NCBI GenBank assembly: GCA_035704495.1
Contig: DASSWW010000038.1
Span: 24,389-88,388, forward strand
Direction: 5' to 3'
From: Candidatus Saccharimonadales bacterium
Lineage (GTDB): Bacteria > Patescibacteriota > Saccharimonadia > Saccharimonadales > Saccharimonadaceae
DNA: 64,000 nucleotides
Part shown: positions 45,029 through 64,000 of the stretch, piece after piece
Numbering within the stretch: the first letter of the stretch is position 1
Layout of the letters: each line of letters begins with the position of its first letter
Program-made: the position numbers and the translations under genes
Notes under the pieces: generated by a model
What the model saw: the letters and a program-made list of their open reading frames with translations, nothing else
Told to the model about the DNA's origin: nothing
The model's database searches: none

Positions 45029-45057
45029 TTGAAATTCAACAGCTAATCTGTTAGTAT
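45029..45057 (+). promoter_or_regulatory. Putative rpsL-rpsG promoter
   Basis: TTGAAA, 17 nt, TAGTAT. About 150 nt of leader follow. Confidence 0.55.
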
Positions 45058-45212
45058 GATATATGAGTTTCCTCTAGTCGGATTATTTGGTGAATAGAAT
45101 GTGTACACACCGAATAAACGCTTACTAGAATGACATAGCGAGGCGATGCTGAAGCCAGACTATACAACCGAGGTACTACTTACCTCAATTTAATTGAATA
45201 ACAGGAGTTTTA

Positions 45213-45629
45213 ATGCCAACAATCAATCAATTGGTGCGTAAACCACGTACGACGGCGAATAAAAAGTCGAAGTCGCCAGCGCTTGGCCGCATCCACAACG
45301 CACTAAAAACGCGTTATTATGATCAAAACGCTCCACTAAAACGTGGCGTTTGTATCAAAGTAACAACCAAAACGCCTAAAAAGCCAAACTCAGCCCTACG
45401 TAAAGTAGCGCGTGTTCGTTTGACTAATGGCCAAGAAGTTTGGGCTTATATCGGTGGTGAAGGTCACAACCTACAAGAACACGCCGTTGTGCTGGTTCGT
45501 GGTGGTCGTGTTCCTGACCTTCCAGGTGTTCGTTATCACATCGTCCGTGGTGCACTTGACCTGCAAGGCGTTGCAAAACGCCAGCAAGGCCGTTCTAAAT
45601 ACGGTGCAAAGAAGGAGGATAAGAAGTAA
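45213..45629 (+). CDS. rpsL: 30S ribosomal protein S12
   Basis: [20 protein letters not shown] and [10 protein letters not shown]. The otherwise universal RVKDLPGVRY reads [10 protein letters not shown] here. Confidence 0.97.
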
Positions 45630-46108
45630 TGCCACGTAAAGTAACCAAAAGCCTGCAGCGTGTCTTGACACCAGACCGCAAATACCAGTCGGTACTTGTA
45701 CAGCGCTTGATTAACAAATCAATCCTTGATGGCAAAAAATCTATCGCAGAAAAAGCCGTTTATACCGCACTAGAAGTCGCTGCCAAAAAGCTTGATAGCG
45801 AAGATCCACTGGCTGTATTTGAAAAAGCATTGAAAAACGTCGCCCCTAACTTCGAAGTAAAATCTCGTCGTGTCGGTGGTGCAAACTATCAGATTCCTTT
45901 CCCAGTTTCGGGCCACCGTCAGCTGCACTACGCGTTTAGCTGGTTGGTGCAGTCTGCACGTGCTCGCAATGGTATTCCATATTCTCAGCGTTTGGCGCTC
46001 GAGATTATCGATGCTCACAACGAAGCTGGTGCTGCGTTCAAAAAGAAAGAAGATACTCACAAAATGGCCGAAGCCAACCGTGCTTTCGCTCACTTTGCTC
46101 GTACATAA
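45629..46108 (+). CDS. rpsG: 30S ribosomal protein S7
   Basis: The ATG overlaps the rpsL stop (TAATG). VKSRRVGGANYQIP and AFAHFAR are present. Confidence 0.97.
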   Translation: MPRKVTKSLQRVLTPDRKYQSVLVQRLINKSILDGKKSIAEKAVYTALEVAAKKLDSEDPLAVFEKALKNVAPNFEVKSRRVGGANYQIPFPVSGHRQLHYAFSWLVQSARARNGIPYSQRLALEIIDAHNEAGAAFKKKEDTHKMAEANRAFAHFART

Positions 46109-46127
46109 GTTCAGCTAGTCTGATACT

Positions 46128-46163
46128 AAATACATCCTCGTTTATTGCGAGGATGTATTATTA
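46128..46163 (+). terminator. Rho-independent terminator directly after rpsG
   Basis: tacatcctcg-tttattg-cgaggatgta followed by ttatt. Confidence 0.75.
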
Positions 46164-46208
46164 TGGTATGATAGGTAAATAATACGACGTGTCGGTAAAG
46201 GAGTAACG

Positions 46209-46805
46209 ATGTCTGAAAAATTATTATCTGGTGCGTGTGACGACTGTCCGCTGCGAAAAAAGATTAATTGTGACGCAGCCGAACGGATAACAACACGAGC
46301 CGCTAGAGCCTCTGACGGCACGGACATAATGGGTTATCCTATTGGACCTGTGAGTCTATCTTTAAGTTATGAGTTTTGTGATAATCCAAATGATGAAAAT
46401 GCTCCTCGATATGAAATTAAAGCTAACAATGCCGAGAAATACTTAGCAGCGGCTGACGAAGTGGAACAAGCACTGCAATCGGATCCGAAATTTGATATGC
46501 CAAAACGCAGACTGGGCGATATCGACGCGTCGATACGACACATGTCGGCCGTACGTATATTACAAGATGCTCGTCATAATAGTTTGAAATCATCGATTGC
46601 CGACGAATTTACACAATGTGAAGCACCAGTAGAGGATGAGACGTCGTGGTTCCGTCGCAAAAAATGTGGTGCCGATGTCGTAGGGAGAGTATTACCGCGT
46701 TCGGAGATGGTTAAACGAAACGAAGAAGCGGAATTAATGCGCAAGTATGGCACAACGGGGTTTGTGGCCGTAAGTAAATTACAAAAATTCAAACCAATTC
46801 GTTAA
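46209..46805 (+). CDS. Hypothetical Cys-containing protein (island A)
   Basis: 198 aa ORF behind AAAGGAG. N-terminal CDDCP...C. No recognised family. Confidence 0.6.
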   Translation: MSEKLLSGACDDCPLRKKINCDAAERITTRAARASDGTDIMGYPIGPVSLSLSYEFCDNPNDENAPRYEIKANNAEKYLAAADEVEQALQSDPKFDMPKRRLGDIDASIRHMSAVRILQDARHNSLKSSIADEFTQCEAPVEDETSWFRRKKCGADVVGRVLPRSEMVKRNEEAELMRKYGTTGFVAVSKLQKFKPIR

Positions 46806-46882
46806 ACTCATCATTCTTGCGCAATAGTTGATTACCAATGCACTAATCGTAATTTATGCGCCAACTGCATCAGATCGGTTCT

Positions 46883-47719
46883 TCATGTAAAATTAGTGCT
46901 ATCTGGATCGGCGCCAATTCGTTCGCCAGTATCAAGGGTGGCGATTTGCGCCATATCATCAGCGTCTAGGGTAAAGTCAAACACGTCGAAGTTTTGTTCG
47001 ATGCGTTCTGCGTGCACGGATTTTGGAATAACAATCGACCCGTTTTCAATGTGCCAGCGGATGATAATCTGCGCGGCACTTTTACCGTGTTTGTGTCCGA
47101 TATCGATAATCTTTTGGTTTGTCAACAAGCCGCCAGTGCTGCCACCTAACGGACTCCATGATTCGACAGCAATATCGTGTTGATTACACAATAAACGCGT
47201 GCCATGTTGCGGAAATTGCGGATGGAGTTCGATTTGGTTAACTGCTGGGGGAATGACAGCATGGTCTAGTAAATCCTCTAAATGATGTGGTTTAAAATTG
47301 CTGACACCAATAGATCGAGCTAGTCCGTCATTAAATATTTTTTCGAACGCGCGCCACGTATCATTGTATTTATTTGCCGCTGGCGCTGGCCAGTGAATCA
47401 GGTATAGATCGATATAATCAAGCTGTAATCTTTCCAAACTTTTCGCAAACGCCTGCAACGTCTTGTCGTATCCCTGATCAGCGTTCCATAGTTTGGTCGT
47501 CACAAATATTTCGTCTCGTGGAATGCCGCTGGCTTTGATTGCTCGGCCGACGCCTTTTTCGTTGCCGTACACGGCAGCTGTATCAATCATCCGATAGCCT
47601 GCTTTTAAAGCCGCGCTGACCGCTGCTTCAACTTCTTTGCCATCTTTGGCCTGCCAGACGCCCAATCCGACCTGTGGTATTGTAATGCCATTGTTAAGTG
47701 TAATATGTGGTTGTGTCAT
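46883..47719 (-). CDS. Aldo/keto reductase (2,5-diketo-D-gluconate reductase-like)
   Basis: LGVWQ, GYRMIDTAAVYGNE, FVTTKLWN, LDYIDLYLIHWP and IPKS are the AKR signature. Confidence 0.9.
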   Translation of the reverse strand: MTQPHITLNNGITIPQVGLGVWQAKDGKEVEAAVSAALKAGYRMIDTAAVYGNEKGVGRAIKASGIPRDEIFVTTKLWNADQGYDKTLQAFAKSLERLQLDYIDLYLIHWPAPAANKYNDTWRAFEKIFNDGLARSIGVSNFKPHHLEDLLDHAVIPPAVNQIELHPQFPQHGTRLLCNQHDIAVESWSPLGGSTGGLLTNQKIIDIGHKHGKSAAQIIIRWHIENGSIVIPKSVHAERIEQNFDVFDFTLDADDMAQIATLDTGERIGADPDSTNFT

Positions 47720-47798
47720 GCGTCCTCCAATCTGTCTGGCTGCAATAGTAGCAGTAAATATATGGAGCGGCAGTAAGATACCTTACTGAGAGCCAATT

Positions 47799-48419
47799 CT
47801 AGATAACACAGCGGTCAACGTAAATAATAAATTGAGTGCGGCTATAGTCGATACAACCCTGGGCACGCAGCTTTTGCAGTTCGACTGATGTTGTTTCGCG
47901 GGTGGAACTAATCATTTCGGCCAAATCTTTATGAGTAAGCTGTAGGCCTAATTTGTATAAATCAACTGTAGTATCAGCGCTAAAACGCTTGGCAAGGTAG
48001 GACAGAGTGGCGATTAATTTGTCACGCACACTGGCTTGTTCGGCAGAATTAATTCTTGATAATAAATCATCATAATGGCTACTCATGCTAGTCGCGATTT
48101 CGGTCATCAATCCCAAATCGGTTTTGGCAGCTGCTAAAAAATCATCTTTACGGATTTGATAGACGGTCCCACTGGATAGCGCAGTATAAAAAAACTGTAG
48201 TGGTTGATGGCGCGAAAAAAGTCGTTCTGTCGGTACAATATCATAACGCCCGGCAATCCATAACATTCGTTCGTTTCCTGCTTCGTCGACGGACGTTACT
48301 TTTACATAGCCGTTTTGAATCGCTAGCAAAACATCAGAAACATCGCCCTCGCTGAGGATAACTTCGCCTTTGGTGAAGTTTTTGATGGGAAAGTTTTTGA
48401 CAAATCTGGTGACATCCAT
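47799..48419 (-). CDS. Crp/Fnr family transcriptional regulator
   Basis: N-terminal cNMP-binding barrel (GEVILSEGD....L.I..G.VKV) and a C-terminal HTH (LTHKDLAEMISSTRETTSVELQKL). Confidence 0.85.
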   Translation of the reverse strand: MDVTRFVKNFPIKNFTKGEVILSEGDVSDVLLAIQNGYVKVTSVDEAGNERMLWIAGRYDIVPTERLFSRHQPLQFFYTALSSGTVYQIRKDDFLAAAKTDLGLMTEIATSMSSHYDDLLSRINSAEQASVRDKLIATLSYLAKRFSADTTVDLYKLGLQLTHKDLAEMISSTRETTSVELQKLRAQGCIDYSRTQFIIYVDRCVI

Positions 48420-48512: not shown

Positions 48513-48899
48513 ATGTCATTACGATTTATACCAACAAAAGTACACGGAGCGCTCGATTATATCGTTGCTATCGCGTTAATATTTGCACCAATGATTTTCG
48601 GTTTTCAAGAAGTCGGTGGCGCTGCAGTTTATATTCCAATAATTCTAGGTGTCGGTCTGTTCTTGTATAGCTTGCTGACTAACTATGAATGGGGTCTAAT
48701 CAAGGTAATTGGTATGCCATACCACTTGGTTATCGATATTCTTGCGTCAACATTGCTAGTCTTGTCACCGTTTTTGTTCGGATTCATCGACGAAGCACCA
48801 AACGCATGGTTGCCACACATCGCCGTCGGTGTCACTGTTATTTTGGTTGTTCTATTTTCACAGACACAACCTGCAGTTGATAAAAATACCGTCGCTTAA
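48513..48899 (+). CDS. Small four-TM membrane protein (SPW-repeat-like)
   Basis: AAGGAGGA RBS. Repeated ..FAPMIFGF / LSPFLFGF helices. Confidence 0.6.
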   Translation: MSLRFIPTKVHGALDYIVAIALIFAPMIFGFQEVGGAAVYIPIILGVGLFLYSLLTNYEWGLIKVIGMPYHLVIDILASTLLVLSPFLFGFIDEAPNAWLPHIAVGVTVILVVLFSQTQPAVDKNTVA

Positions 48900-48928
48900 A
48901 TCCGCATAGGTACACAACACTATTCAGC

Positions 48929-48959
48929 AAAATATCCCGCTCACCACGCGGGATATTTT
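48929..48959 (+). terminator. Rho-independent terminator
   Basis: aaaatatcccgc-tcaccac-gcgggatatttt. Confidence 0.85.
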
Positions 48960-48997
48960 GATGGATTACGCTGCCCGTAATCGGTAATACGAGGCTT

Positions 48998-49987
48998 ATG
49001 CTTGAGTTAACGTCGCAATTACTATTTAATATATACATGGAACACCCAACAAGTGCCGACTTATCGTTTTTAGATCGCTTAGAATCCGTAACGACAGATC
49101 CGATGGTGGATAAAGTATTCGCTACTGCGCGTGAATACGAAGAAATGATTAATTCTACTGGCAGCGTTACAGCCGAAGACAGGATTGCACTAATCGCAGA
49201 ATTAAACGATACGTGGCCTTTTATGGGTATGAAGCTGCAGGTCTCGGGCCGTTTGTCATTTGCTGACACTGAATCGGGTGAGGTTAAGGCCAAATATTAT
49301 GACGACAGGCCGATGATATCAAATGGTTTCTGTTTTATCGAAGACCATATTATGTCAGACGAAGAAGTAGTCGCCGAACACTACAAAGTTGGTTTGCATA
49401 TGATTCGATTTGCCGACGAGACATCTAACGAAGGCGAGCTTGGTGTGGGGCTACTTGACGATGTTGCAATTGATTACCCCGTACATTCACCCGAAATGAT
49501 TGAAAATCGATTACGATATTTTCATTCAGAAACGATGGAAAGGCTAGATACAATCGTCTTAAACTGCGAGACCGAAGAACAAGCGGTCATGCAGTTAAAA
49601 GATTTTACTATCGATGCCATACCATCTGATACGGAGAGTATGCAGGTGGCGAGTGATCTGCAAGTTTACCTGTCATCAATACTTGAATTTGATGATCGAC
49701 TACCGTACAACATCACTATAGCGGGCGATTGTTTTGCTGAGGTGGATGGTGTGGTTTGCGCAGCAAAAATTGAAGAAATTATGTCCGGTGTTGCAGGGGT
49801 TGCTGGTGTAAAATTTTTGCAACAAGCCGAGCTACCATCAGACCAAGAACAATGTTTGATGGTCTGTATAGAAATATATTGGTTCACTGCAGATAAAAAA
49901 GCACCTCCTTTGCATCTTTACCTACCATCGAAAAGCATCCAAGACATTACATCTGTCCGCAGGATTACCTACGAAGAAGAGGACTGA
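48998..49987 (+). CDS. Hypothetical acidic protein, paralog family P (copy 1)
   Basis: Aligns by eye with the 51131-52069 product (LI.EL...W.YM....VSG.L; YP..SP...E.RL.Y.H; .FD..LPY). The start may be the ATG at 49037. Confidence 0.6.
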   Translation: MLELTSQLLFNIYMEHPTSADLSFLDRLESVTTDPMVDKVFATAREYEEMINSTGSVTAEDRIALIAELNDTWPFMGMKLQVSGRLSFADTESGEVKAKYYDDRPMISNGFCFIEDHIMSDEEVVAEHYKVGLHMIRFADETSNEGELGVGLLDDVAIDYPVHSPEMIENRLRYFHSETMERLDTIVLNCETEEQAVMQLKDFTIDAIPSDTESMQVASDLQVYLSSILEFDDRLPYNITIAGDCFAEVDGVVCAAKIEEIMSGVAGVAGVKFLQQAELPSDQEQCLMVCIEIYWFTADKKAPPLHLYLPSKSIQDITSVRRITYEEED

Positions 49988-50070: not shown

Positions 50071-51114
50071 ATGACTGAGCAACTAGGTGAGCCGACGGAA
50101 CCGATACAAAACATCGTGGCAGAACGCTTTGGTGCAGAAAAGCAAGCCAGAGAGAGTGTCGCTTGTGTCATGGGGCTAGGGAGGCTTTTGTCGCAAAAAG
50201 AGTTTGAATCGCTCGCAGATGCACGGCAGAACGTTGCCGAGTATATAAAGCAGTTTCACCAAGAAATGGGCAAGGTACCAAATATACAATCAGTTTTAAT
50301 GCAGGCAAGTGGTGGTGATGTTTCCGTTGCAAACCCACACTACACTATCGATTCAACGTCTGGCGCGATAACAATTCAATTTAATAACGATCCGCCGGTC
50401 GTCTCACCGCCGCTGCTTAGTTCTCGACTTTTTAGACTTTCTGGTCCTTTTGTGCCGTATCACCAGCGTGATGATGGTAGTGTCGTGGTAAAACCTACCT
50501 TGGTGGGTGACGATCTAGAACGAAAGTCGTGGGGTATTAATCCTGTATCCGGTTTGCCGATGACAACGGTTCATATGACCTCGAAAATTATGATTCCCTG
50601 TGACAGCGATGATGCACACATAGAAATTATCGAACTAGAAAATGAAGAAAAGCGCATACGGGCCGTCGAAGAGTTGGCCGCGTACGTATCTGAAGAAACA
50701 GGTTTGGTTGATGACGTCAACGAAATGAATCAGGCCTTGTACAAATCCGATACTGAACGCATGCGCCACAAGAATTTACCAGACATTGATTTACTGCGAT
50801 CATTAGGCAGAAAAGGTATAGAATATATCCAACAAGGCTCAAAGGCTGCCGATGCATTGAACACGGCCATCGCTGCAACTATTGGTAAGCGGCCGTTGAT
50901 GATTGACGGTAAAGCCTACGAAACAAACGGCGGCGGCGCACTTACCGAAAGTCACGTAGCGGGTTACGAAGGTCGCGTCATGGATGTCGTTTCTGAAATA
51001 CCTATGTCCGACGAATACATCGGCCCAACGCTCGCGATGACGTCACGCAGTGCCAAAGACCCTAACCGCATTTCATATTTGCCGTTGACTGATGTCACCG
51101 CATTACAGTTTTAA
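50071..51114 (+). CDS. Hypothetical protein (flanked by the two family-P paralogs)
   Basis: 347 aa ORF with a strong RBS and no recognised domain. Confidence 0.6.
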   Translation: MTEQLGEPTEPIQNIVAERFGAEKQARESVACVMGLGRLLSQKEFESLADARQNVAEYIKQFHQEMGKVPNIQSVLMQASGGDVSVANPHYTIDSTSGAITIQFNNDPPVVSPPLLSSRLFRLSGPFVPYHQRDDGSVVVKPTLVGDDLERKSWGINPVSGLPMTTVHMTSKIMIPCDSDDAHIEIIELENEEKRIRAVEELAAYVSEETGLVDDVNEMNQALYKSDTERMRHKNLPDIDLLRSLGRKGIEYIQQGSKAADALNTAIAATIGKRPLMIDGKAYETNGGGALTESHVAGYEGRVMDVVSEIPMSDEYIGPTLAMTSRSAKDPNRISYLPLTDVTALQF

Positions 51115-51130: not shown

Positions 51131-52069
51131 GTGGATAAAGAAGATTTACATCAATCGCTAGAGGGCCGAACGGTGGATTTTGACGCGCTTGATCATCTGG
51201 AAGGTCTGACGCGCAATGACTACATGAACACCGTGTTCCAAAGAGTTAAAGAGGCGGAGCAGACACTCAACCAAGAAACGACGACGACCAACCAACAAGC
51301 TAAGCTGATTCAACAACTCGATGAAAGTTGGTGGTACATGGATCAAGAAATTCCCGTATCTGGAACACTACATGTAAAAACTGGCCATCTGACACCAGAA
51401 CTACCTGAATATACCCTAGTGCCTGTTGACGAGATAGAACTAGAAAGCAAAGGTTTTATTATATTAACGTTCGGCGCAACAATAGATGATGAGTCGATAG
51501 TATACCGCCGCATGGCGCTATGCTTTAAGCAAGACGACACCCTTGTAGCAATGTTGCCAGAAGACATCATTAACACTTTTCCTGATTATTCGCCTGACAT
51601 TTCAGAAAGACGATTGCTCTATCATCACAAAGACGAAGTGCTACGGATTACCGATCGTGTCGAATCGTCAGATATTGCAGCCAGGACACCGCTGGTAATG
51701 AATTTTACCGATTATGCGGTTGATATCTTGATGCATGCCAAATATGACGATGAATACAAAAGCGATCTAGAAAATTATTTATTTAAAGCGATGGATTTTG
51801 ATAACGAATTGCCGTACGTTGTAAGTTGCGCTCTGACCGAAGATGATTTCGATGATAATAGAACGCTCCAGTTCATTGCGCAACCTGATGCCATTACCCT
51901 TGTACCACTTATCAATAATCAACAGACGGATGGCCCTCAGCGACACATTCCACGGTTGGAATTATCAGTATTTGCCGATAACCCCAAAGATCCAAATATT
52001 AACGTGAGCGTACCACTACATACATTACGCCAGGTGACACCAGTGCGGCAAATGGGCAATAAACAGTAG
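51131..52069 (+). CDS. Hypothetical acidic protein, paralog family P (copy 2)
   Basis: GTG start behind TGGAG. Similar to the 48998-49987 product. Confidence 0.6.
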   Translation: MDKEDLHQSLEGRTVDFDALDHLEGLTRNDYMNTVFQRVKEAEQTLNQETTTTNQQAKLIQQLDESWWYMDQEIPVSGTLHVKTGHLTPELPEYTLVPVDEIELESKGFIILTFGATIDDESIVYRRMALCFKQDDTLVAMLPEDIINTFPDYSPDISERRLLYHHKDEVLRITDRVESSDIAARTPLVMNFTDYAVDILMHAKYDDEYKSDLENYLFKAMDFDNELPYVVSCALTEDDFDDNRTLQFIAQPDAITLVPLINNQQTDGPQRHIPRLELSVFADNPKDPNINVSVPLHTLRQVTPVRQMGNKQ

Positions 52070-52168
52070 TAATACTAGCAATATCCATTGATTTTTGTTA
52101 AAATAAGTATCAAGCGCTATTTTTGATGGCAAAAATTATATAACTCACAAAGGAAGAGCACACACGCT

Positions 52169-55719: not shown

Positions 55720-55747
55720 TTGCAGTGTACGATAACGAGGCTATAAT
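55720..55747 (+). promoter_or_regulatory. Promoter with -10 9 nt before the ATG of the 55757 gene
   Basis: TTGCAG, 16 nt, TATAAT, then aacgatactATG. No SD. Confidence 0.55.
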
Positions 55748-55756
55748 AACGATACT

Positions 55757-56389: not shown

Positions 56390-56424
56390 TACAAGCACCA
56401 CCGTCGTTACCGTGATGTCTATGC

Positions 56425-56453
56425 TTGCAACATCGCTACAATAACGTTATACC
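56425..56453 (+). promoter_or_regulatory. Promoter with -10 6 nt before the ATG of the 56460 gene (leaderless)
   Basis: TTGCAA, 17 nt, TATACC, then agaaatATG. This is the same -10-to-ATG module seen at clpP. Confidence 0.6.
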
Positions 56454-56459
56454 AGAAAT

Positions 56460-57113
56460 ATGACCGAACGATTTACCTATAGAAACAAGGAGCCGCTGCC
56501 ACCAACAGCGCCGATTCGGACGCTAGATGAAGATTTGCGTGTTCTGAGCGATGAATGCGCACTTGTTATGGCATATCAACGTTATATCAAAGACGAGCTT
56601 GGTATATCTGAAGAAGAAGCAGATGCACTGTTTCTGTTATTACAAAGCGAAGGAACATTACCATCCAGCGAGGCTTTTGACTCGGATGAATTATTGAATG
56701 GTATAAAAGAAGAATATCGCCTAGGTATTTTTAGCGGTATAGAGCCCCTGTATCGGAATATGCATACGTCTGAAGAGTACGAGGAATGGTTGCCGGCAGC
56801 ACTCAACGTCGTGGTGCCAAAAGACGGTCGCCATCAGCCAGACGATTGCCTGCGGACAAACGGAATCATCCATGGGTGCTGCGAGATTGGAACGTGCCCG
56901 GTACACATTGTGATTGATAGCGCGAAAGAATCGCTAGAATCCTCTGATTTTACTTCGTATGAATACCAAACAGATAGTGAAAAGGCCTGCCGAGATAGTT
57001 TAACGCTACTTTCCGAGTTGGTTGATCGTCATTACATCCCTTTGTTTGAAGCAAATAGGCTAAAATATGGCTACATCAATACATACAACCAAACCTTTAG
57101 TAAATCCGAGTAA
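56460..57113 (+). CDS. Hypothetical protein, paralog family Q (copy 2)
   Basis: 217 aa ORF in tandem with copy 1. Confidence 0.6.
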   Translation: MTERFTYRNKEPLPPTAPIRTLDEDLRVLSDECALVMAYQRYIKDELGISEEEADALFLLLQSEGTLPSSEAFDSDELLNGIKEEYRLGIFSGIEPLYRNMHTSEEYEEWLPAALNVVVPKDGRHQPDDCLRTNGIIHGCCEIGTCPVHIVIDSAKESLESSDFTSYEYQTDSEKACRDSLTLLSELVDRHYIPLFEANRLKYGYINTYNQTFSKSE

Positions 57114-57120
57114 TTACTCT

Positions 57121-57148
57121 TTACGAACACTTATAAACACTGTATAAT
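57121..57148 (+). promoter_or_regulatory. Putative tuf promoter
   Basis: TTACGA, 16 nt, TATAAT. AGGAGAA RBS before the ATG at 57212. Confidence 0.55.
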
Positions 57149-57211
57149 CAACATCATACGTCGCGGAGTCTATATGGGCTGTGCGCGAAAATAATTAATC
57201 AGGAGAACTAA

Positions 57212-58396
57212 ATGGCAGATTTTGATCGAACCAAACCTCACGTTAACGTTGGTACTATGGGTCACGTTGACCACGGTAAAACAACTTTGACCGCAGCGAT
57301 TACACACGTCCTTGCAAAGAAACTTCCAAGCGACACAAACAAAGCGCGCGCATACGCAGATATTGACAACGCACCAGAAGAGAAAGCTCGTGGTATCACG
57401 ATCGCTTCATCTCACCAGGAATACGAGTCAGAAGCTCGTCACTACGCACACGTCGACATGCCAGGTCACGCCGACTACGTTAAAAACATGATCACTGGTG
57501 CCGCTCAAATTGATGGTGCTATCCTAGTGGTTGCTGCAAACGACGGTCCACTGCCACAAACTCGTGAACACGTATTGCTTGCTCACCAGGTGAACGTTCC
57601 AAAAATCGTTGTTTTCCTAAACAAAATGGATCTTGCGGACGAAGAACTTGTTGAATTGGTTGAAATGGATGTTCGTGAATTGTTAACTAAAAACGGTTAC
57701 GACGGCGACAACGCACCAATCATCAAAGGCTCTGCAACAAAAGCTCTAGAAGGCGATGCAGCTAACGAAGAAGCAATCATGGAACTCGTCGCTGCACTCG
57801 ATAGCTACGTCGAAGAACCACAGCGCGACCTAGACAAACCATTCCTGATGCCTATCGAAGACGTTTTCTCGATCAAAGGTCGTGGAACAGTTGCAACTGG
57901 TCGTATCGAACAAGGTATCGTTAAAATTAACGATCCAGTCGAAATCGTCGGTGTGAAAGCAACTCAGAACTCAGTTGTTACTGGTATCGAAGCTTTCAAA
58001 AAGAACCTAAACCAAGGTCAAGCAGGCGACAACGCTGGTATCTTGCTACGCGGTATTGAACGCGAACAAGTTGAACGCGGTCAAGTTTTGGCAAAACCAG
58101 GTTCAATCACTCCACACACAGAATTCGAAGCCGAAGTCTACATCCTTAAAAAAGATGAAGGCGGACGTCACACTCCATTCAGCAAGGGTTACAAACCTCA
58201 GTTCTACTTCCGCACCACTGACGTTACCGGTGAAGTTGAACTTCCAGCTGACAAAGAAATGGTTATGCCAGGTGACACGTTGACTTTCAAAGTCAAACTA
58301 CTTGCTCCAATCGCCATGGAACAAGGTCTAAACTTCGCCATTCGCGAAGGTGGCAAGACCGTTGGTGCTGGTGTCGTTACCAAAATCACCAAATAA
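57212..58396 (+). CDS. tuf: Elongation factor Tu
   Basis: [17 protein letters not shown] and NKMD. Full-length 394 aa. Confidence 0.97.
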
Positions 58397-58413
58397 TTAG
58401 TCTCCTAATTATC

Positions 58414-58448
58414 AAAAATACCTCCGAATTATATCGGAGGTATTTTTT
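58414..58448 (+). terminator. Rho-independent terminator after tuf
   Basis: aaaaatacctccga-attata-tcggaggtatttttt. Confidence 0.9.
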
Positions 58449-58539: not shown

Positions 58540-58902
58540 TCAAAGGCCTTTAATCGTGACGTACAGACGGCAACAATTGCTGTCATTGTTCATACTGACG
58601 ACCTTGCATCTGAATGCTAATGGCATGTCACCGGCACGATGAGCAATTTTTTGCTCGAACACGAGGGCGAGCCCAACAGGATTAATGCCGTCCATCGAAG
58701 CTTCTTTACACCACGGAACAGTAAACAGTACTGTTGGTTGATTTTTGCCAATAGCACGTTGAACGCCTCCACAAGGTAGTTTCAAACAAAAATCGTTCAA
58801 CTGTACGTCAAACGTAATATTACTACACAGAGTGGTCATTACGAAGTTGTCGATATCAGCGTTGATGGTGCTGATACCGTTTGCGGCCACATGGCTAGTC
58901 AT
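58540..58902 (-). CDS. Hypothetical Cys-rich protein (island C)
   Basis: 120 aa with 7 Cys. AAAGGA lies 6 nt before the ATG. Confidence 0.6.
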   Translation of the reverse strand: MTSHVAANGISTINADIDNFVMTTLCSNITFDVQLNDFCLKLPCGGVQRAIGKNQPTVLFTVPWCKEASMDGINPVGLALVFEQKIAHRAGDMPLAFRCKVVSMNNDSNCCRLYVTIKGL

Positions 58903-58977
58903 TTTAAGTCCTTTGAATGTATGTGTACGTCAAATTGGTACACATAGTACGAGCAAATAAAACAAGTGCTTATGTAA

Positions 58978-59006
58978 ATAATACCATAAATACAACTAGT
59001 TGTAAA
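58978..59006 (-). promoter_or_regulatory. Promoter of the 58540 gene, overlapped by a 14-bp palindrome
   Basis: Minus strand: TTTACA, 17 nt, TATTAT. The palindrome TACAACTAGTTGTA (58991-59004) spans the -35 and spacer. Confidence 0.55.
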
Positions 59007-59020
59007 TACACCATGATATG

Positions 59021-59090
59021 AAAGCACCCCGCCATGCCCAGAGGCACAGAGGAGTGCAGCTCAATAGGAATGTCGGGGTGAGTAGACGAG
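59021..59090 (-). repeat. Cassette 3'-end structured element, copy 2
   Basis: Minus strand: CACCCCG, about 42 nt containing ctattgagctgcactcctctgtgcctctggg, then CGGGGTGCTTTC. It lies 33 nt after the stop of the 59124 gene. Confidence 0.6.
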
Positions 59091-59123
59091 TGAAAAATTA
59101 CTGGGTATTTGCGTTGACCGACA

Positions 59124-59534
59124 CTACAGCATCAGGAAGTAGACCTGCTTTTGCTTTTCAGCATAGCCGTCAAACGCTACAACTCCCGGCCTAAAAACCC
59201 GATCGCAGTGACTGTTCATCACGTTTCGCAAATCATTGCCCTCTGTAAACACGCCTTTCAAGCTGTCGGGCTTGCTGAGGTAATCTGCGACAGCAGACGA
59301 AACGTCAACGGCAATAACGGTAGAGATGTCAGCTTCTAGTTGCAACTTTGCGTCTAGGCAACTAACCGCTTCTTCGGCTAACTGATGGAGTGCCACTAGC
59401 TGGTTGGGCGAGGCGTCTACGGCTGTAGCCGTATCTATTTCAATCCCTTCTGCCGGCGCGTTGGTGCGATCAATGTCAAATTTACTGCTATGCACGATAA
59501 CTCCTTTGTTGCTATTGAAACCGGTCAGGTTCAA
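59124..59534 (-). CDS. Hypothetical protein (second gene of a two-gene unit)
   Basis: The TTG start overlaps the upstream stop (TTGA). 136 aa. Confidence 0.55.
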   Translation of the reverse strand: MNLTGFNSNKGVIVHSSKFDIDRTNAPAEGIEIDTATAVDASPNQLVALHQLAEEAVSCLDAKLQLEADISTVIAVDVSSAVADYLSKPDSLKGVFTEGNDLRNVMNSHCDRVFRPGVVAFDGYAEKQKQVYFLML

Positions 59535-59812
59535 TTTTTGTATGCGACGTCAGCGACGCATAGGTATTCATTACCGAGTGTTTTGGTCATAGTAACCGAA
59601 ACGGTATCGGCTGAAAGTGTTTCTTTCAGGTTTTCTGCGACAGTATCACAGAAATCTTTTAACACGATCACGCGGTCACGACGCACTGTGTCTCGACTAA
59701 CAGTAGTCGAAGCCGTACTATCGCGACCGATAGTTTTCTGAAGTTTCGGTAGTAACATATTGGCAACATGGGTTGCACCGGTGCAGCGCACGTCACATGA
59801 TGTTGTATCCAA
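59531..59812 (-). CDS. Hypothetical protein (first gene of a two-gene unit)
   Basis: TTG start 5 nt behind GAGGAG. 93 aa. Confidence 0.55.
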   Translation of the reverse strand: MDTTSCDVRCTGATHVANMLLPKLQKTIGRDSTASTTVSRDTVRRDRVIVLKDFCDTVAENLKETLSADTVSVTMTKTLGNEYLCVADVAYKN

Positions 59813-59903
59813 TTTTTCTCCTCATCGAATTGTCTTTCTGGCAAATGCCAGAAATGAACTAATTGCCAGATATTATGTAAAGATAGGTGGTAATTCATTA
59901 TAT

Positions 59904-59932
59904 TTTATACCAAAAATAGGTTCGTATGTCAA
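59904..59932 (-). promoter_or_regulatory. Promoter of the 59812-59124 unit
   Basis: Minus strand: TTGACA, 17 nt, TATAAA. The leader contains three CTGGCA/TGCCAG repeats. Confidence 0.6.
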
Positions 59933-59976
59933 TAAATCACCATCAAACCAGTGAAACACGTTCACGTTTTTGTAAG

Positions 59977-60016
59977 TGAGGACATTGGAGCGAGCAGAAG
60001 CTCCGTTGTCCTCACT
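59977..60016. repeat. Inverted repeat / hairpin downstream of the 60033 gene, without a clear U-tract
   Basis: gtgaggaca..ggagc..gctcc..tgtcctcac, a nested stem. Confidence 0.4.
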
Positions 60017-60032
60017 CGTTACGAACGGATAG

Positions 60033-60389
60033 TTATTTTCGATATGTGGCCGTTATGGTCATAGCCGTATGCTTTGTCGGGCCGCTTAATGTCAGTGACA
60101 CGGGTTCTTTACCCAGAATACGCTGCATGTTAACACGAACGTCGCGCACCAACAACAACCTCCAACGCTTATGTGTTGTATCTGCCAGCGAATGATCAAA
60201 GCTGTACGCTCCTTTGGCAGGGCGTACAAAATCCAAAGTTGTCTGATCGACCTGTAGATTATCTAGCAGGCCGGCAACAACAAACCGCACGAGACCATCT
60301 CCAATTTTCATTACTCTTTCATCTGTTAACCATGCCGGGCCAGATTCATTAGTCTGTCGATGCGCATCAAAATCGATAATTTTCGCCAT
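60033..60389 (-). CDS. Hypothetical protein (island C)
   Basis: Start set at the ATG at 60389 (MAKIIDF), 6 nt behind a GGAG core. The ORF track extends to a TTG at 60440. Confidence 0.55.
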   Translation of the reverse strand: MAKIIDFDAHRQTNESGPAWLTDERVMKIGDGLVRFVVAGLLDNLQVDQTTLDFVRPAKGAYSFDHSLADTTHKRWRLLLVRDVRVNMQRILGKEPVSLTLSGPTKHTAMTITATYRK

Positions 60390-60484
60390 TTCTTGCTCCA
60401 ATGTCCGAATTGTTATTGGCGGTATCGCCACTTTATACAAATCACATCAATACTTGAAGTGATTATAAACACACTATACCATAT

Positions 60485-60572
60485 AAAAAGCAAACACCCC
60501 GCCTGTGACACCCAGAGGCGCCCAAGGTAGGGTGCTGCTCGATAGATGCAAAAACGGGGTTAGGTGATGACG
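60485..60572 (-). repeat. Cassette 3'-end structured element, copy 3
   Basis: Minus strand: cacctAACCCCG, about 53 nt containing ctatcgagcagcaccctaccttgggcgcctctggg, then CGGGGTGTTTGCTTTTT. The 5' arm contains the stop codon of the 60560 gene. Confidence 0.6.
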
Positions 60573-60805
60573 AGGAAATGGTGTTTGGATTCGAGCGATC
60601 GCAGGTGGCGAATCTTTTTCTCCTTCGATGCTTGAATCATCAGCACCATATTCACCTCGTTGACAGTAAAACAATCGTAATCGATCTGGTATTCGATTTC
60701 TACGACGCAGCCTGGTTTGGCATAATCGGCGTAATCGGCGGCCTTTGAAACGATTTCTTCGGCGATTTCTTTGCAGGTTTGCTGTTTGGTCGGTGTCATA
60801 ATCAT
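60560..60805 (-). CDS. Hypothetical protein (81 aa, second gene of a two-gene unit)
   Basis: GAAGG precedes the ATG. It starts 6 nt after the upstream gene. Confidence 0.55.
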   Translation of the reverse strand: MIMTPTKQQTCKEIAEEIVSKAADYADYAKPGCVVEIEYQIDYDCFTVNEVNMVLMIQASKEKKIRHLRSLESKHHFLVIT

Positions 60806-60811
60806 AGCCTT

Positions 60812-61312
60812 CTATCGGTGTGTGCCAGTTTTGTATTTGTCGTACTTGTCTATGAACTGAACACGAAACGTATGTTCTGTTGCATCCCAGACAAGTCGGA
60901 AATAGTGCTTAACAGTAACAGTTTTACGAAAAAAGTTTTTCCGTTTTTCGTGCCGAAACCACTCTTCAGATTCAATATAAGCAATAATCTGCTCCAAATC
61001 GCTGCCAGAGAATTGCCGCATCGCTCTCCTGACCGGTAATAAAAACCCATCAGGTGTATCGTTTACATATAGACGCGTCGAAGCGTAAATCGAAATCCTT
61101 GAAGCAACATTAGATGCTGCCGCGTTGTCAATTCGCGCTAACTTTGCAAGCGAGTCCCGTAGACCCGGCGTGCTCAATATAAAAGCTGGCGGATTTACAT
61201 CCCGTAACATCTGATTGACCTTTTTGCGAGCCTCTTGATCACTCATATTGGACACGGTCATCTCCTGTCGGTAGGTACAAACTAACTCATTAGTTATATG
61301 TATATCATGCAT
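60812..61312 (-). CDS. Hypothetical protein (start uncertain)
   Basis: 166 aa ORF. A TTGACA-17-CATGAT promoter overlaps the listed ATG, so the GTG at 61255, behind AGGAG, may be the real start. Confidence 0.5.
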   Translation of the reverse strand: MHDIHITNELVCTYRQEMTVSNMSDQEARKKVNQMLRDVNPPAFILSTPGLRDSLAKLARIDNAAASNVASRISIYASTRLYVNDTPDGFLLPVRRAMRQFSGSDLEQIIAYIESEEWFRHEKRKNFFRKTVTVKHYFRLVWDATEHTFRVQFIDKYDKYKTGTHR

Positions 61313-61332: not shown

Positions 61333-61361
61333 TTTACAAAGGGCAGGCTATCTGCTACACT
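61333..61361 (+). promoter_or_regulatory. Putative rpsJ promoter, back to back with the divergent island C promoter
   Basis: TTTACA, 17 nt, TACACT. About 95 nt of leader precede AAAGGAG. Confidence 0.55.
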
Positions 61362-61460
61362 ACCAAGGTATTATTAAATTTATATCGAGAACTCGGCCAG
61401 ACTGAACAAAGCAGATTCGAGCAGAGGTTACGGTATAGCACATAAAAGGAGTCTTATCTG

Positions 61461-61781
61461 ATGGCAGATAAACAAGAAGGCCTGCGTATTCGCATTCGCC
61501 TAAAGGCCTATGACCACAAGGTTATTGACCAATCAGCAAAACAAATTATCGACACGGCAATCCGTACCGGTGCCAGCATCGCAGGGCCAGTGCCACTGCC
61601 AACTCGTCGCAGCACGTTTACGGTCGTTAAATCACCACATGTTTACAAAACCGGTGGTGAAGCGTTTGAAATGCGCGTTCACAAACGTCTGATCGACATT
61701 ACTAACGCAACGCCAAAGACAATCGACAGTTTGCAAAACCTCAGCCTTCCAGCTGGTGTTGATGCCGAAATTCGTATGTAA
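61461..61781 (+). CDS. rpsJ: 30S ribosomal protein S10
   Basis: [20 protein letters not shown]......GA...GP.PLPT........SPH..K....FE.R.HKRLIDI. Confidence 0.97.
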
Positions 61782-61798
61782 TTGTCGCCACTTAGCAA

Positions 61799-61828
61799 CA
61801 AAAACACCTCGCCTGGCGAGGTGTTTTT
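61799..61828. terminator. Bidirectional rho-independent terminator directly after rpsJ
   Basis: aaaaacacctcg-cctgg-cgaggtgttttt. Confidence 0.85.
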
Positions 61829-61844
61829 GATTGATTACCGAATA

Positions 61845-62171
61845 CTATTCAGCTTTTTCGGCTTTGGCTGCAGGCTGAAAATTATTATCAGTATAAGCAG
61901 AATTCAACTCTACTTGATCATACAGTTTTTGAATCTGCATGTTCAATGTCATAACCCACAAGCCAAGCGCCAAGATAAGGCCACCCAGAATGATCCAATA
62001 GAGGGTTTGTGTCGTAAACCTGTAGGTAAAGAACGGAACGGTTTCTTCTGAGCGTCGGAATGAGCGGACAGATGCTACCTTTGCTTTCTTTGTGCCTGCT
62101 TTTTTAGGGGCCTTATGGGCCGCAGTTGATTTTACCGATTTAACTGGTGACTTCTTTTTTGTTGCTGCCAT
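61845..62171 (-). CDS. Hypothetical membrane protein with a Lys-rich N-terminus (island D)
   Basis: AGGGGA RBS, one TM helix (LYWIILGGLILALGLWVM) and a basic N-terminal tail. Confidence 0.6.
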   Translation of the reverse strand: MAATKKKSPVKSVKSTAAHKAPKKAGTKKAKVASVRSFRRSEETVPFFTYRFTTQTLYWIILGGLILALGLWVMTLNMQIQKLYDQVELNSAYTDNNFQPAAKAEKAE

Positions 62172-62223: not shown

Positions 62224-62607
62224 ATGCAATATCTAATTGTACTTATGGTTTTTGCTTTGGTATACTACCTTGTAATGACACGCGAAAAACAAAAACGACC
62301 CCGCACGTATGCACGCAACCGTGCCGCAGTTATTAGTCGACGTGGTTACGAAAAAGTTTTCGAATCTGACAGCACATACCTCTTAAAACTTGTTGCATTT
62401 GTACTGCTTGGAACGTTATGGCTACGGTTCGCAGAGCCGGTGTTCTGGCTAGGAGTACCGCTGACCGGTATACCAATTGGCTTATTTATCGGTTTACTAC
62501 TGGTCAGACAGTTTGAAAAATATCAACTTGATCGCAAGATTTGGTACGCGATTTTAATTGTCGTCACTATTATTTGCTACTTCGTGCCTGCCGGTATTGT
62601 TATCTAG
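62224..62607 (+). CDS. Hypothetical multi-pass membrane protein (island D)
   Basis: ORF 62092-62607 trimmed to the ATG at 62224, which removes the overlap with the antisense gene. Four hydrophobic helices. Confidence 0.55.
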   Translation: MQYLIVLMVFALVYYLVMTREKQKRPRTYARNRAAVISRRGYEKVFESDSTYLLKLVAFVLLGTLWLRFAEPVFWLGVPLTGIPIGLFIGLLLVRQFEKYQLDRKIWYAILIVVTIICYFVPAGIVI

Positions 62608-62653: not shown

Positions 62654-63052
62654 TCAAGACGGGGCTCCTCCACGGAAATCGTCCAGAATTGCATCGCATG
62701 TCGTTGGCACACCTTGCGTCAGATGACCACGAATGGGATATGTTTCGTGCATATCGTAATATGTCAGTACTACTGTTGGATTGCGTGGATTTTTAGTTAA
62801 TGTGACGTGTAACAGAAACATACTAAAGAATTCGCTATGTGCATTCAATACGTCTGGCACAGTCAGCACTGGAAACTGGCGATCAAATAATGATTCGAAA
62901 TGCGCCTCTATCCATTGTCGAAGGTCGGCGGTGATGTAACGCGTATCCACGTTCCAGCCACCTAGGTTGTCGATATAGATATATATTGGATCATGATCAC
63001 TAAACATGACCTTAAAACGATTGTCTGTTGGAAACTTCCTGTTGAAGGGCAT
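62654..63052 (-). CDS. Hypothetical protein (island D)
   Basis: Start set at the ATG at 63052 (MPFNRKF), 10 nt behind GGACGGA. The ORF track begins at a GTG at 63061. Confidence 0.55.
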   Translation of the reverse strand: MPFNRKFPTDNRFKVMFSDHDPIYIYIDNLGGWNVDTRYITADLRQWIEAHFESLFDRQFPVLTVPDVLNAHSEFFSMFLLHVTLTKNPRNPTVVLTYYDMHETYPIRGHLTQGVPTTCDAILDDFRGGAPS

Positions 63053-63146
63053 TATTGTCACATCCGTCCTGATAGATATCGGAGACTAATAATTACATGT
63101 ATTATAACCTAAAAATATGGTTGTGTAAATACTTTCAAATTAATAT

Positions 63147-63227
63147 AAAAAGCCCGCACATTCCGGGCTCTAGCTGGCGGACTAACTGTAAAATGGTCAG
63201 TCCGCCAGCGAGCGGTAAGTGCGGGTT
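63147..63227 (-). terminator. Compound nested stem-loop terminator
   Basis: Minus strand: cccgcac..[ctggcggact..agtccgccag]..gtgcgggCTTTT. An alternative gcccg/cgggc hairpin also precedes the T-tract. Confidence 0.6.
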
Positions 63228-63250
63228 GTATTATGTAATGACGCCTATTC

Positions 63251-63583
63251 CTAATAAGGGATGCGTGGATTATATTCAATCTGTCGGATGAGCTGATGGA
63301 ACGCTTCCTCGGGAGGTGTGTCATCGGGCCAGGGCATAAAATCGATAAGCATATACCCGTTGCCGTCACGCTTGGGTTTAAATGCAACAATGACCCTTGC
63401 CGAAAAACGAACTCCTGGTCGAAGTCGTCCGTCGCCAAATTCGTATCCACCAGCTTGTATGTCATCGCATGGCAAGCCGGGTTGTGGAAATGCGTCGTAC
63501 GTCGCCATTCGACATGTGCCTTGCGCAACCATAACAATACCACTAGATGTCATGTATTCGGTAATAGCCGAAATAGGTGCCAT
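63251..63583 (-). CDS. Hypothetical protein (island D)
   Basis: AGGAGGA lies 5 nt before the ATG. 110 aa. Preferred over the overlapping 63109-63543 ORF. Confidence 0.6.
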   Translation of the reverse strand: MAPISAITEYMTSSGIVMVAQGTCRMATYDAFPQPGLPCDDIQAGGYEFGDGRLRPGVRFSARVIVAFKPKRDGNGYMLIDFMPWPDDTPPEEAFHQLIRQIEYNPRIPY

Positions 63584-63701
63584 GGTATCCTCCTAAGAGT
63601 TTATAATGTCCGGACGATCCGAATCATTACCATTTAATTTACTATAGCATAAATAGTATGAATACACAATAGTGGCGGTAGTAATACGTACACCTAAACA
63701 G

Positions 63702-63730
63702 TTGACAACCCGCCTCTGTTGTGATAAATT
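63702..63730 (+). promoter_or_regulatory. Putative rplC (S10-operon remainder) promoter
   Basis: TTGACA, 17 nt, TAAATT. Confidence 0.6.
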
Positions 63731-63801
63731 TGGTAGGTAACTTATTACGTAATAACAACTCGTTCTTGGTGAATTGGCAAGTCTACATCTGTAGAAACTG
63801 C

Positions 63802-63827
63802 CTCCCACCAAGAATTTTAAGTGGGAG
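63802..63827 (+). promoter_or_regulatory. Leader hairpin immediately upstream of the rplC RBS
   Basis: ctcccac-caagaattttaa-gtgggag, ending 10 nt before the ATG. Confidence 0.4.
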
Positions 63828-63837
63828 CAAAAGGGCA

Positions 63838-64000
63838 ATGAAAGCACTTCTCGGTACCAAAATTGGTATGACCCAAATCATCAGTGAGGATGGACGCGCA
63901 GTACCTGTGACGTTAATTCAAGCTGGCCCCGTGACTGTGACTCAAGTCAAGTCTGTCGAAACCGACGGCTACAACGCAGTCCAGGTGGCATATGGTGAGG
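63838..64000 (+). CDS. rplC: 50S ribosomal protein L3 (3' end runs off the window)
   Basis: [38 protein letters not shown] is the typical L3 N-terminus. Confidence 0.93.

Follow-up and report, generated by a model that had tools for sequence, protein, structure and literature searches.

Lineage-specific gene islands at the operon boundaries of the str/S10 ribosomal gene string in a Saccharimonadales genome

Results

The str/S10 string is divided into five units

The str/S10 string of ribosomal genes is a textbook case of deep gene-order conservation. We analyzed this string in a 64-kb stretch of DNA (the window, designated W in the alignments) from a metagenome-assembled genome (MAG) of Candidatus Saccharimonadales (Saccharibacteria/Patescibacteria). 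Downstream of rpoB and rpoC, the order rpsL-rpsG-fusA-tuf-rpsJ-rplC is kept on the plus strand (Table 1), as had been claimed in the original prediction made from the letters of the window and as the coordinates of the open reading frames (ORFs) from rpsL to rplC confirm. The conserved order and orientation of the classical str/S10 string are thus present, but its contiguity (gaps of about 200 nt or less) is lost, and the predicted terminators and conserved predicted promoters speak against its co-transcription (str from rpsL to tuf, S10 from rpsJ on). The stop codon of rpsL still overlaps the start codon of rpsG, both sharing position 45629. Every junction after rpsG is occupied, with gaps of exactly 6060 nt (rpsG|fusA), 2949 nt (fusA|tuf), 3064 nt (tuf|rpsJ) and 2056 nt (rpsJ|rplC) that hold 7, 3, 6 and 4 inserted genes, respectively, 20 in all. 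These lengths and counts are those originally given, and the gene counts agree with two independent sets of gene calls, from Logan and from the Prokaryotic Genome Annotation Pipeline (PGAP; VFM68_02975-03025).

Table 1 Coordinates and properties of the conserved units and inserted genes in the window
Feature	Position	Strand	Properties
rpoB	37750-41106	+	ORF call
rpoC	41108-44938	+	ORF call
Unit 1	45029-46169	+	promoter-like site 45029-45057; rpsL 45213-45629; rpsG 45629-46108; terminator hairpin 46123-46169
rpsG terminator	46123-46169	+	-22.8 kcal/mol, z -7.1
g1	46209-46805	+	198 aa, Cys-rich, no Pfam family
g2, aldo/keto reductase (AKR)	46883-47719	-	PF00248, E = 5e-59
g3, Crp/Fnr-type regulator	47799-48419	-	PF00027 and PF13545
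g4, SPW-repeat membrane protein	48513-48899	+	PF03779, E = 3e-13; four transmembrane (TM)-like segments
g5	48998 or 49037 to 49987	+	acidic soluble protein, paralog of g7
g6	50071-51114	+	acidic soluble protein
g7	51131-52069	+	acidic soluble protein, paralog of g5
Unit 2	52096-54313	+	extended -10 element TGTTAAAAT 52096-52104; leader 52114-52136; fusA 52169-54262; terminator 54280-54313
fusA terminator	54280-54313	+	-20.8 kcal/mol, z -5.7
Island 2	54362-57113	+	h1, h2, h3
h1, M16 peptidase	54362 or 54389 to 55672	+	PF00675, PF05193
h2	55757-56389	+	Cys-motif paralog of h3
h3	56460-57113	+	Cys-motif paralog of h2
Unit 3	57120-58447	+	promoter 57120-57148; tuf 57212-58396; terminator 58414-58447
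tuf terminator	58414-58447	apparently bidirectional	-20.1 kcal/mol, z -6.0
Island 3	58540-61312	-	six small antisense ORFs, i1-i6
i1	58540-58902	-	Logan and PGAP calls
i2	59124-59495 (or to 59534)	-	Logan and PGAP calls
i3	59531-59812	-	Logan and PGAP calls
i4	60033-60389 (or to 60440)	-	Logan and PGAP calls
i5	60560-60799 (or to 60805)	-	Logan and PGAP calls
i6	60812-61255 (or to 61312)	-	Logan and PGAP calls
Unit 4	61333-61833	+	promoter-like site 61333-61361; conserved leader; rpsJ 61461-61781; terminator 61796-61833
rpsJ terminator	61796-61833	apparently bidirectional	-23.1 kcal/mol, z -6.8
j1	61845-62171	-	basic N-terminus and one TM segment
j2	62245 or 62275 to 62607	+	three TM segments
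j3	62654-63052	-	homolog in L090 (29%)
j4	63251-63583	-	no homolog
Unit 5	63702-64000	+	promoter-like site 63702-63730; structured leader 63765-63837; rplC from 63838, runs past the window end

Support for this arrangement came from an independent assembly, the Logan contigs of run SRR25158396. Three of them are 100% identical to the window (L081, 41128-52419; L083, 52390-58258; L082, 58229-63881; loci and contigs are numbered with the prefix L), and each of the four islands lies together with both flanking conserved genes within a single contig, each contig spanning one or two islands. The contigs end with 30-nt overlaps inside fusA (52390-52419) and tuf (58229-58258). These graph branches in conserved sequence would suit a chimera in which assembly or binning had joined different strains inside conserved genes, but they are also the branch points expected in a de Bruijn graph if a related strain is present in the sample. 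A chimera is further contradicted by the contigs that cross every island, by the GC content, which is uniform at ~45% across the 64 kb, and by the similar order in single contigs of other samples: L084 and L086 carry rpsL-rpsG-island-fusA-h-tuf, and L090 carries g7-fusA-h3-tuf-island-rpsJ-j1-j2-j3. An assembly chimera is very unlikely, and we give this explanation next to no weight.

The inserted DNA had been described as foreign-looking, which its composition does not bear out. The GC content of the individual inserted ORFs is 0.41-0.51, compared with ~0.45 for the genome, their GC content at third codon positions is genome-like, and their codon usage is native. A hexamer coding model, trained on 18 long genes from other parts of the window, gave each of the 20 inserted ORFs its best score in the annotated frame (about 0 to +0.17, versus about -0.5 for the other frames). 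Two ORFs that overlap j4 scored in the wrong frame, and the real j4 is therefore the minus-strand ORF listed in Table 1. None of the classical marks of a genomic island (integrase or recombinase, tRNA or att flanks, direct repeats, atypical composition) was found in the islands of the window: a repeat search revealed no att-like direct repeats bracketing any of them, and Rfam detected two tRNAs in the whole window, none of which lies in an island.

Predicted terminators, promoters and leaders

The terminators and promoters described here are sequence predictions. Hairpins followed by U-tracts were found after rpsG, fusA, tuf and rpsJ, with folding energies of -20 to -23 kcal/mol and z scores of -5.7 to -7.1; in 200 shuffles, no fold as stable as theirs was obtained. 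A hairpin resembling them is also present 3' of rpoC, and an additional one lies downstream of g4 (48922-48966, inverted repeat I6). The tuf and rpsJ terminator hairpins are flanked by an A-run and, on the opposite side, by a T-run; they seem to be bidirectional and would serve the convergent genes i1 and j1 as well. In the spacer between g7 and fusA, neither a terminator scan nor folding revealed a terminator (z +0.6), so that read-through from g6-g7 into fusA is also plausible.

The promoter scan recovered all four sigma70-like sites named in the original prediction (at 45029, 57121, 61333 and 63702), with the scan overall only weakly above chance (50 sites versus 36.7 ± 6.9 expected). A good promoter for fusA had been reported missing there, but the gene is preceded by an extended -10 element of the form TGnTAnAAT, TGTTAAAAT at 52096-52104, which is kept in eight genomes (alignment A9). 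The leader motif that follows, GCGCTnTTTTTkATGGCAAAAAwT (52114-52136), is nearly invariant in eight genomes and could form a small AU-rich hairpin. A 13-mer of this leader, TTGATGGCAAAAA, also occurs in rpsG (45726) and inside fusA (52494); a repeat search placed this recurrence at chance level, and we rejected it as a meaningful repeat. The tuf promoter, TTTACG-N17-(TG)TATAAT at 57120-57148 (in its fuller form CTTTACG-N17-TGTATAAT), is conserved together with the 5' untranslated region in the window, L090, L086 and L010, and more weakly in L007 and L008 (alignment A7). The rpsJ promoter and leader are conserved as well (alignment A8).

In front of rplC lies a structured leader (63765-63837) that is conserved in six Saccharimonadales genomes (alignments A10 and A11) and shows compensatory changes in 6 of its 15 predicted pairs. 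Its outer stem is CTTGGTG...CACCAAG and its inner stem GCAAGTCy...rGAwACTGC. The leader has no Rfam match, and Rfam gave nothing above threshold in the region from 44.9 to 64 kb. Possibly, it represents a ribosomal-protein autoregulatory leader that has not been described before, situated in front of rplC rather than of rpsJ.

The promoters of fusA, tuf and rpsJ and the rplC leader are kept in relatives with compact (L010, L005) as well as with expanded junctions, showing that the split into transcription units is not a consequence of the insertions. Taken together, the strong hairpins and the conserved promoters support the earlier proposals that each conserved piece has its own stem-loop/T-tract terminator and that the pieces are transcription units of their own. 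In strain TM7x, the promoter and terminator of tuf and the promoter of rpsJ each served Wang et al. as a strong expression element of its own (PMC10633639), which fits the picture of separate transcription units.

The same junctions are expanded in related genomes

For 160 loci of GTDB genomes and of JGI/ENA metagenomes, and for contigs found by exact protein look-up, we determined the positions of the anchor genes and grouped the relatives by the identity of their elongation factor G (EF-G) to that of the window (Table 2). Exact look-ups of fusA and of two other window proteins gave no match, probably because of start-codon differences or contig breaks. In the close clade, junction lengths span 56-7623 nt, and the rpoC-rpsL junction is often expanded too (>1 kb in 9 of 14 loci). 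The rpsL-rpsG junction, by contrast, is never split (median gap 5 nt in 19 close relatives), and the S10 interior rplC-rplD-rplW-rplB-rpsS-rplV-rpsC is packed with gaps of 0-3 nt in the close relatives examined; the expansions are thus confined to operon boundaries. In some loci, "fusA matches" of 2.6-3.1 kb were considered as possible inteins and rejected, as they were cross-matches to the GTPase domain of the adjacent tuf.

Table 2 Gaps between anchor genes in loci grouped by EF-G identity to the window
Group	rpsG-fusA	fusA-tuf	tuf-rpsJ	rpsJ-rplC
EF-G >=76% (close clade, 33 loci), median gap (nt)	2581	2397	1605	705
Close clade, loci with gap >1 kb	13/21	16/24	9/13	2/6
EF-G 62-75% (mostly Saccharibacteria, other Patescibacteria), median gap (nt)	311	497	189	1021
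EF-G <62% (distant bacteria), median gap (nt)	109	165	130	181

The same conserved core genes bound the intervals in all compared genomes (>160 loci), and what lies between them is highly diverse: grouping the 170 island ORFs of 34 close loci gave 115 families, 91 of which are singletons. Among the listed families with at least three members, 15 of 17 stay at one junction. The largest island proteins of the relatives are of ordinary accessory or metabolic types and include a CHASE histidine kinase, ferric-reductase-like, ApbE and SPFH proteins, a nucleotidyl transferase, an alpha-amylase, a class V aminotransferase, an M48 peptidase, an APH-family kinase and a DsbA-like protein; the 20 largest comprised neither an integrase nor a transposase. 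The layout of the relatives is thus interrupted at the same boundaries, with contents that are mostly unshared. A similar interrupted layout in related genomes is one half of what the original prediction had named as contrary evidence; the other half, inserted genes belonging to known housekeeping families, was not found.

Species-level turnover could be followed most directly in the metagenome contigs L092 and L093, which are ~95% identical over 22 kb and in which all breaks in colinearity fall in junction islands: a ~500-nt indel between rpoC and rpsL, a patch of 69% identity between fusA and tuf, and a divergent patch after tuf. In the fusA-tuf island, one gene slot (L092 16453-18003, L093 16630-18354) has been fully replaced and encodes unrelated acidic proteins of 385 aa in one genome and 565 aa in the other, although its neighbors, a GlgB-like and a Tgt-like gene, have protein identities of 94% and 98.5%, respectively. 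The 500-nt windows beside this slot are 86% (left) and 93% (right) identical, versus ~95% elsewhere, in this single pair. A sliding-identity comparison of the window with its relatives showed no clear mosaic.

The nearest relatives of the window share 84-85% nucleotide identity in fusA (80-85% for fusA and tuf), with protein identities of 92% for RpoC, 62% for AKR and 72% for Crp. Since these relatives are distant, the 29-53% identity of the uncharacterized residents of the islands indicates faster-than-average evolution and not recent acquisition.

In addition, four loci labelled as lying outside Saccharibacteria have a fusA-tuf junction enlarged to 1.8-3.6 kb, namely L035 (Parcubacteria group), L045 (Uhrbacteria), L044 ("bacterium") and L040 (labelled Gammaproteobacteria), and they have small ORF families in common. 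From these sequences, the junction may be permissive more widely in the superphylum.

Inserted genes and their homologs

The original prediction had assigned a family to 3 of the 20 inserted genes and regarded the other 17 as ORFans. Pfam recognizes four: the aldo/keto reductase, the Crp/Fnr regulator and the M16 peptidase, and in addition the SPW-repeat membrane protein at 48513-48899. For the other 16, the scans (all 16 against Pfam and PADLOC, subsets against NCBIfam and PHROG) gave no significant match. Of the island genes, 16 of 20 lack a Pfam family, a higher share than the 12 of 37 found elsewhere in the window (Fisher p = 8e-4). When the 20 island proteins were compared with the defence-system models of PADLOC, a single marginal match was obtained (j1 to NucC, E = 6e-4).

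The designation as ORFans is wrong for at least 9 of these 16 genes (g1, g5, g6, g7, h2, h3, j1, j2 and j3), which have homologs in relatives at the same junction. In the closer relatives (EF-G identity 97, 94 and 90%), the positional homologs are 35% (g1), 43% (g5), 35% (g7), 35% (h2), 40% (h3), 53% (j1), 84% (j2) and 29% (j3) identical. The homologs of g1 (E = 6e-32), AKR, Crp and g5 occupy the junction of the window in L084, and those of g7, h3, j1, j2 and j3 do so in L090. Syntenic orthologs of g2 (62% identity) and g3 (72%) are present in L084-L088, while g4 is absent from the L084 island. Homologs of j1 follow rpsJ in L090, L001, L010, L091, L096, L100 and L109. Those of j2 were found in L090 (84% identity), L001, L006, L012, L014, L017-L019, L042, L098 and L107, and the gene lies between rpsJ and rplC in Saccharibacteria whose EF-G is ~71-87% identical to that of the window.

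The two local paralog families that had been proposed were both recovered (E = 2e-17 for g5/g7 and E = 7e-6 for h2/h3). In L084 and L090, the only gene separating fusA from tuf is an h-family homolog, with 35% and 40% identity, respectively. A family downstream of fusA in L001, L002, L004 and L005 was considered as a further branch of the h family and rejected, because it is a polytopic membrane protein. The residents of the g5/g6/g7 and h types are absent from the clade members with compact junctions (L010, L004, L005) and from L015.

A profile of the g5/g7 family matched 240 clusters (50% identity representatives) among 1.84 billion proteins; family members have ~310-330 aa and match the profile over their full length. 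In six genomes, fusA is immediately preceded by a same-strand gene of the g5/g7 family; the relatives among them are L084, L090, L001, L104 and L149. In L001, a single ORF of 699 aa (7788-9887) directly upstream of fusA combines a g5/g7-like part (aa 1-324) with a g6-like part (aa 396-699), a fusion that may serve as a Rosetta-stone hint that g5 and g6 act together; L002 has a g6-like gene just upstream of fusA. The AlphaFold (AF2) model of g5, calculated from a 50-member alignment, is confident (predicted local-distance difference test, pLDDT, 93.6; predicted template-modelling score, pTM, 0.83) and consists of two repeats, each a three-helix unit with long beta-hairpins, as in an internal duplication. 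Foldseek revealed no PDB or BFVD match to this model with a TM score >0.25. Neither the g5/g7 profile nor the h-family profile nor g6 gave anything significant against PDB sequences (HMMER), and a g5-subfamily profile found nothing in a JGI metagenome scan. In a word-indexed protein search, the g5/g7 profile had five matches and g6 alone none; the single-sequence AF2 model of g6 (pLDDT 33) was unusable.

Genes i1-i6 form a tidy antisense, operon-like run that is predicted to start divergently from rpsJ and to end at the bidirectional tuf terminator; island 3 of the window and that of L090 are both runs of small antisense ORFs. No Pfam or PADLOC family was detected for i1-i6, no PHROG family for i1-i4, the four scanned, and no NCBIfam family for i6, the only one scanned. 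Neither these six genes nor j4 had a homolog among ~170 related loci, and each is a singleton 90% cluster; i6, the sole one of the seven searched there, found only itself among 5.8 billion clusters. By these related loci and the exact-cluster look-up, i1-i6 and j4 have so far no detectable homolog and can be called ORFans.

Other features of the window

Upstream of rpoB (33600-37750), the usual rplK-rplA-rplJ-rplL genes are missing, so the wider secE-rpoBC cluster is rearranged too. The ORFs present there encode a ClpP-like protein (35188-35784), a membrane protein without a Pfam family (35873-36622) and a PP2C phosphatase (36764-37579). At 56-985 of the window, an RNase HII domain and a C-terminal UPF0102 (YraN-like nuclease) domain are combined in a single protein.

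Discussion

The comparison of these loci indicates that the interrupted layout is an inherited trait of the clade with ongoing gene turnover, and not the result of a recent colonisation of the window genome, since clade-specific genes occupy the same junctions in relatives. We consider it probable that the junctions are long-standing gene-turnover hotspots at operon boundaries, free of mobile elements. According to this interpretation, the str/S10 region of the clade would be a row of short units (rpsL-rpsG, fusA, tuf, rpsJ, and rplC onwards), each equipped with a conserved promoter or leader of its own and with a strong terminator that is often bidirectional, and the boundaries between them, together with rpoC|rpsL in relatives, would tolerate extra DNA. 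The occupants would be of three kinds: old, clade-specific and fast-evolving residents (g5/g6/g7 upstream of fusA, the h family downstream of it, j1/j2/j3 after rpsJ), ordinary accessory genes beside them (AKR, Crp, SPW, M16 peptidase), and slots with genome-specific genes (i1-i6, j4). Their contents would be altered through gains and losses, through local duplication (g5/g7, h2/h3) and through the replacement of entire cassettes, the last presumably by homologous recombination in the conserved flanking genes after natural transformation. We infer this mechanism from the competence of Saccharibacteria, which are naturally transformable and integrate DNA via homology arms of ~1 kb (PMC10633639), from the lack of mobile-element signs and from the replacement seen between L092 and L093. 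The inserted genes are probably accessory and not part of translation.

Several points weigh against this interpretation. No genome of the same species was found, the nearest being 80-85% identical in fusA and tuf, so that recent turnover in the lineage of the window is not visible. The controls for turnover are only three, namely rpsL|rpsG, the S10 interior and the fraction of Pfam-less genes in the rest of the window. Moreover, the tight, recurrent placement of g5/g6/g7 and of the h family beside fusA could stem from a functional link and not just from tolerated insertion. In that case, g5/g6/g7, the h family and j1/j2 would be clade-specific partners of EF-G, EF-Tu or the ribosome, kept adjacent for co-expression. 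The same-strand position directly upstream of fusA in six genomes, the terminator-free g7-fusA spacer, the fusion in L001, the lone h-family gene between fusA and tuf in L084 and L090, the wide conservation of j1 and j2 at their own junction and the confident g5 fold without a match among solved structures all point in this direction. Yet these proteins show only 25-45% identity at an EF-G identity of 94-97%, an unusual divergence for core partners of translation; L010, L004, L005 and L015 lack them, a conserved promoter of its own is retained by fusA, and the searches detected no domain known from translation. A functional link of g5/g6/g7 or the h family to EF-G is a live minority reading, unlikely on balance.

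The original prediction saw systematic colonisation of the junctions of a highly expressed operon rather than a single insertion. More than one event is indeed indicated by the highly variable contents across relatives, whereas a recent or foreign origin agrees neither with the native composition nor with the shared positional homologs. That recently acquired foreign DNA with true ORFans fills the junctions has in its favor that all four are occupied, that Pfam-less genes are enriched there, that i1-i6 and j4 lack detectable homologs and that g6 alone was without a match in the word-indexed search. We nevertheless regard it as unlikely, because GC and hexamer usage are native, 9 of the 16 uncharacterized genes as well as AKR and Crp have same-junction homologs, j2 sits at rpsJ|rplC across Saccharibacteria down to an EF-G identity of ~71%, the g5/g7 family comprises ~240 representative clusters, and the islands contain no integrase, tRNA gene or flanking repeat. 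The opposite extreme, a single ancestral insertion followed by very fast evolution and de novo gene birth without any horizontal exchange, would explain the native composition, the conserved synteny at very low identity, the local duplications and the small antisense ORF runs in island 3 of the window and of L090. Divergence alone is insufficient, however, for the L092/L093 slot, in which near-identical neighbors enclose unrelated proteins, and it accounts poorly for island sizes of 56-7623 nt and for unrelated enzymes of well-known Pfam families; we therefore rate it as rather improbable. Variable regions rich in uncharacterized genes are often defence or prophage islands, and the marginal match of j1 to NucC could be read in this sense. 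A mobile element, prophage remnant or anti-phage defence island is nonetheless highly improbable, given that there was no PHROG match with E below 0.007, no credible PADLOC match, no integrase, transposase or recombinase domain, no tRNA gene or flanking repeat, and no match to the predicted viral structures in BFVD.

The loss of the rpsJ|rplC link has a parallel. In the str operon of cyanobacteria and plastids, rpsJ is attached to rpsL-rpsG-fusA-tufA and stands apart from rplC, so that this junction is not universally fixed. There, rplC and the genes following it have been relocated elsewhere, whereas in the window rplC stays 2 kb downstream on the same strand, with j1 and j2 in between.

Hotspots free of mobile elements and flanked by recombining core genes are common, and over-represented, in naturally transformable bacteria (Oliveira et al. 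2017, PMC5635113). The junctions described here resemble them in being core-flanked intervals with diverse, rapidly replaced content and without recognizable mobile elements; a hotspot is defined there as the top ~1% of intervals in a species pangenome, while the window is likened to it by content turnover in 20-kb loci. They differ in that the flanks are the most conserved translation genes and the hotspots lie back to back. Multigene insertions between the operons of the rpoBC-str-S10 region are known from Gammaproteobacteria and Bacilli: tusDCB separates rpoBC from str, bfd-bfr separates str from S10, and Bacilli have nrdHEF or ilv/leu (PMC6735719; Brandis 2021, PMC8046335). As in those cases, the order and orientation of the translation genes are kept and lineage-specific, unrelated blocks stand between the units. 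Unlike them, the sites rpsG|fusA, fusA|tuf and rpsJ|rplC lie within operons in E. coli nomenclature, four to five adjacent junctions are hit at once in the Saccharimonadales clade, the inserted genes are turned over among close relatives and do not form a single fixed insertion, and no transposable elements were seen. The feature is probably a further example of this known class of core-flanked hotspots and inter-operon insertions. We found no paper describing such a layout in Saccharibacteria or other bacteria from the Candidate Phyla Radiation (CPR), which is not proof of novelty.

A bolder interpretation, which we offer as a doubtful possibility, is that translation-gene boundaries are the main "cassette ports" of these ultra-small competent epibionts. 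The fusA, tuf and rpsJ genes (~80-95% nucleotide identity across species) would provide universal homology arms for cross-species swaps by transformation, and the cassettes, including the acidic g5/g6/g7 proteins with their novel fold, might set host range or interaction; independently, the g5-g6 pair might be a new clade-specific EF-G-associated factor. Two leads for further work are the ~240-cluster family beside fusA, whose confidently predicted fold matched no solved structure, and the structured leader before rplC, which is unannotated.

"Operon concatenation" has been proposed as the force that maintains str/S10 contiguity (PMC6735719); in the Saccharimonadales clade this constraint appears to be relaxed. 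For Saccharibacteria, the junctions are natural neutral sites for engineering and likely sources of strain-specific genes in genomes where about one third or more of the genes are unannotated, and contig breaks and strain variation are to be expected at them when MAGs are assembled or binned with blocks of ribosomal-protein markers. More generally, a whole clade has dissolved the contiguity of str/S10 at four or five adjacent boundaries, keeping each essential gene under its own conserved predicted promoter and using the gaps for fast gene turnover, which means that the constraint on this string is lineage-dependent.

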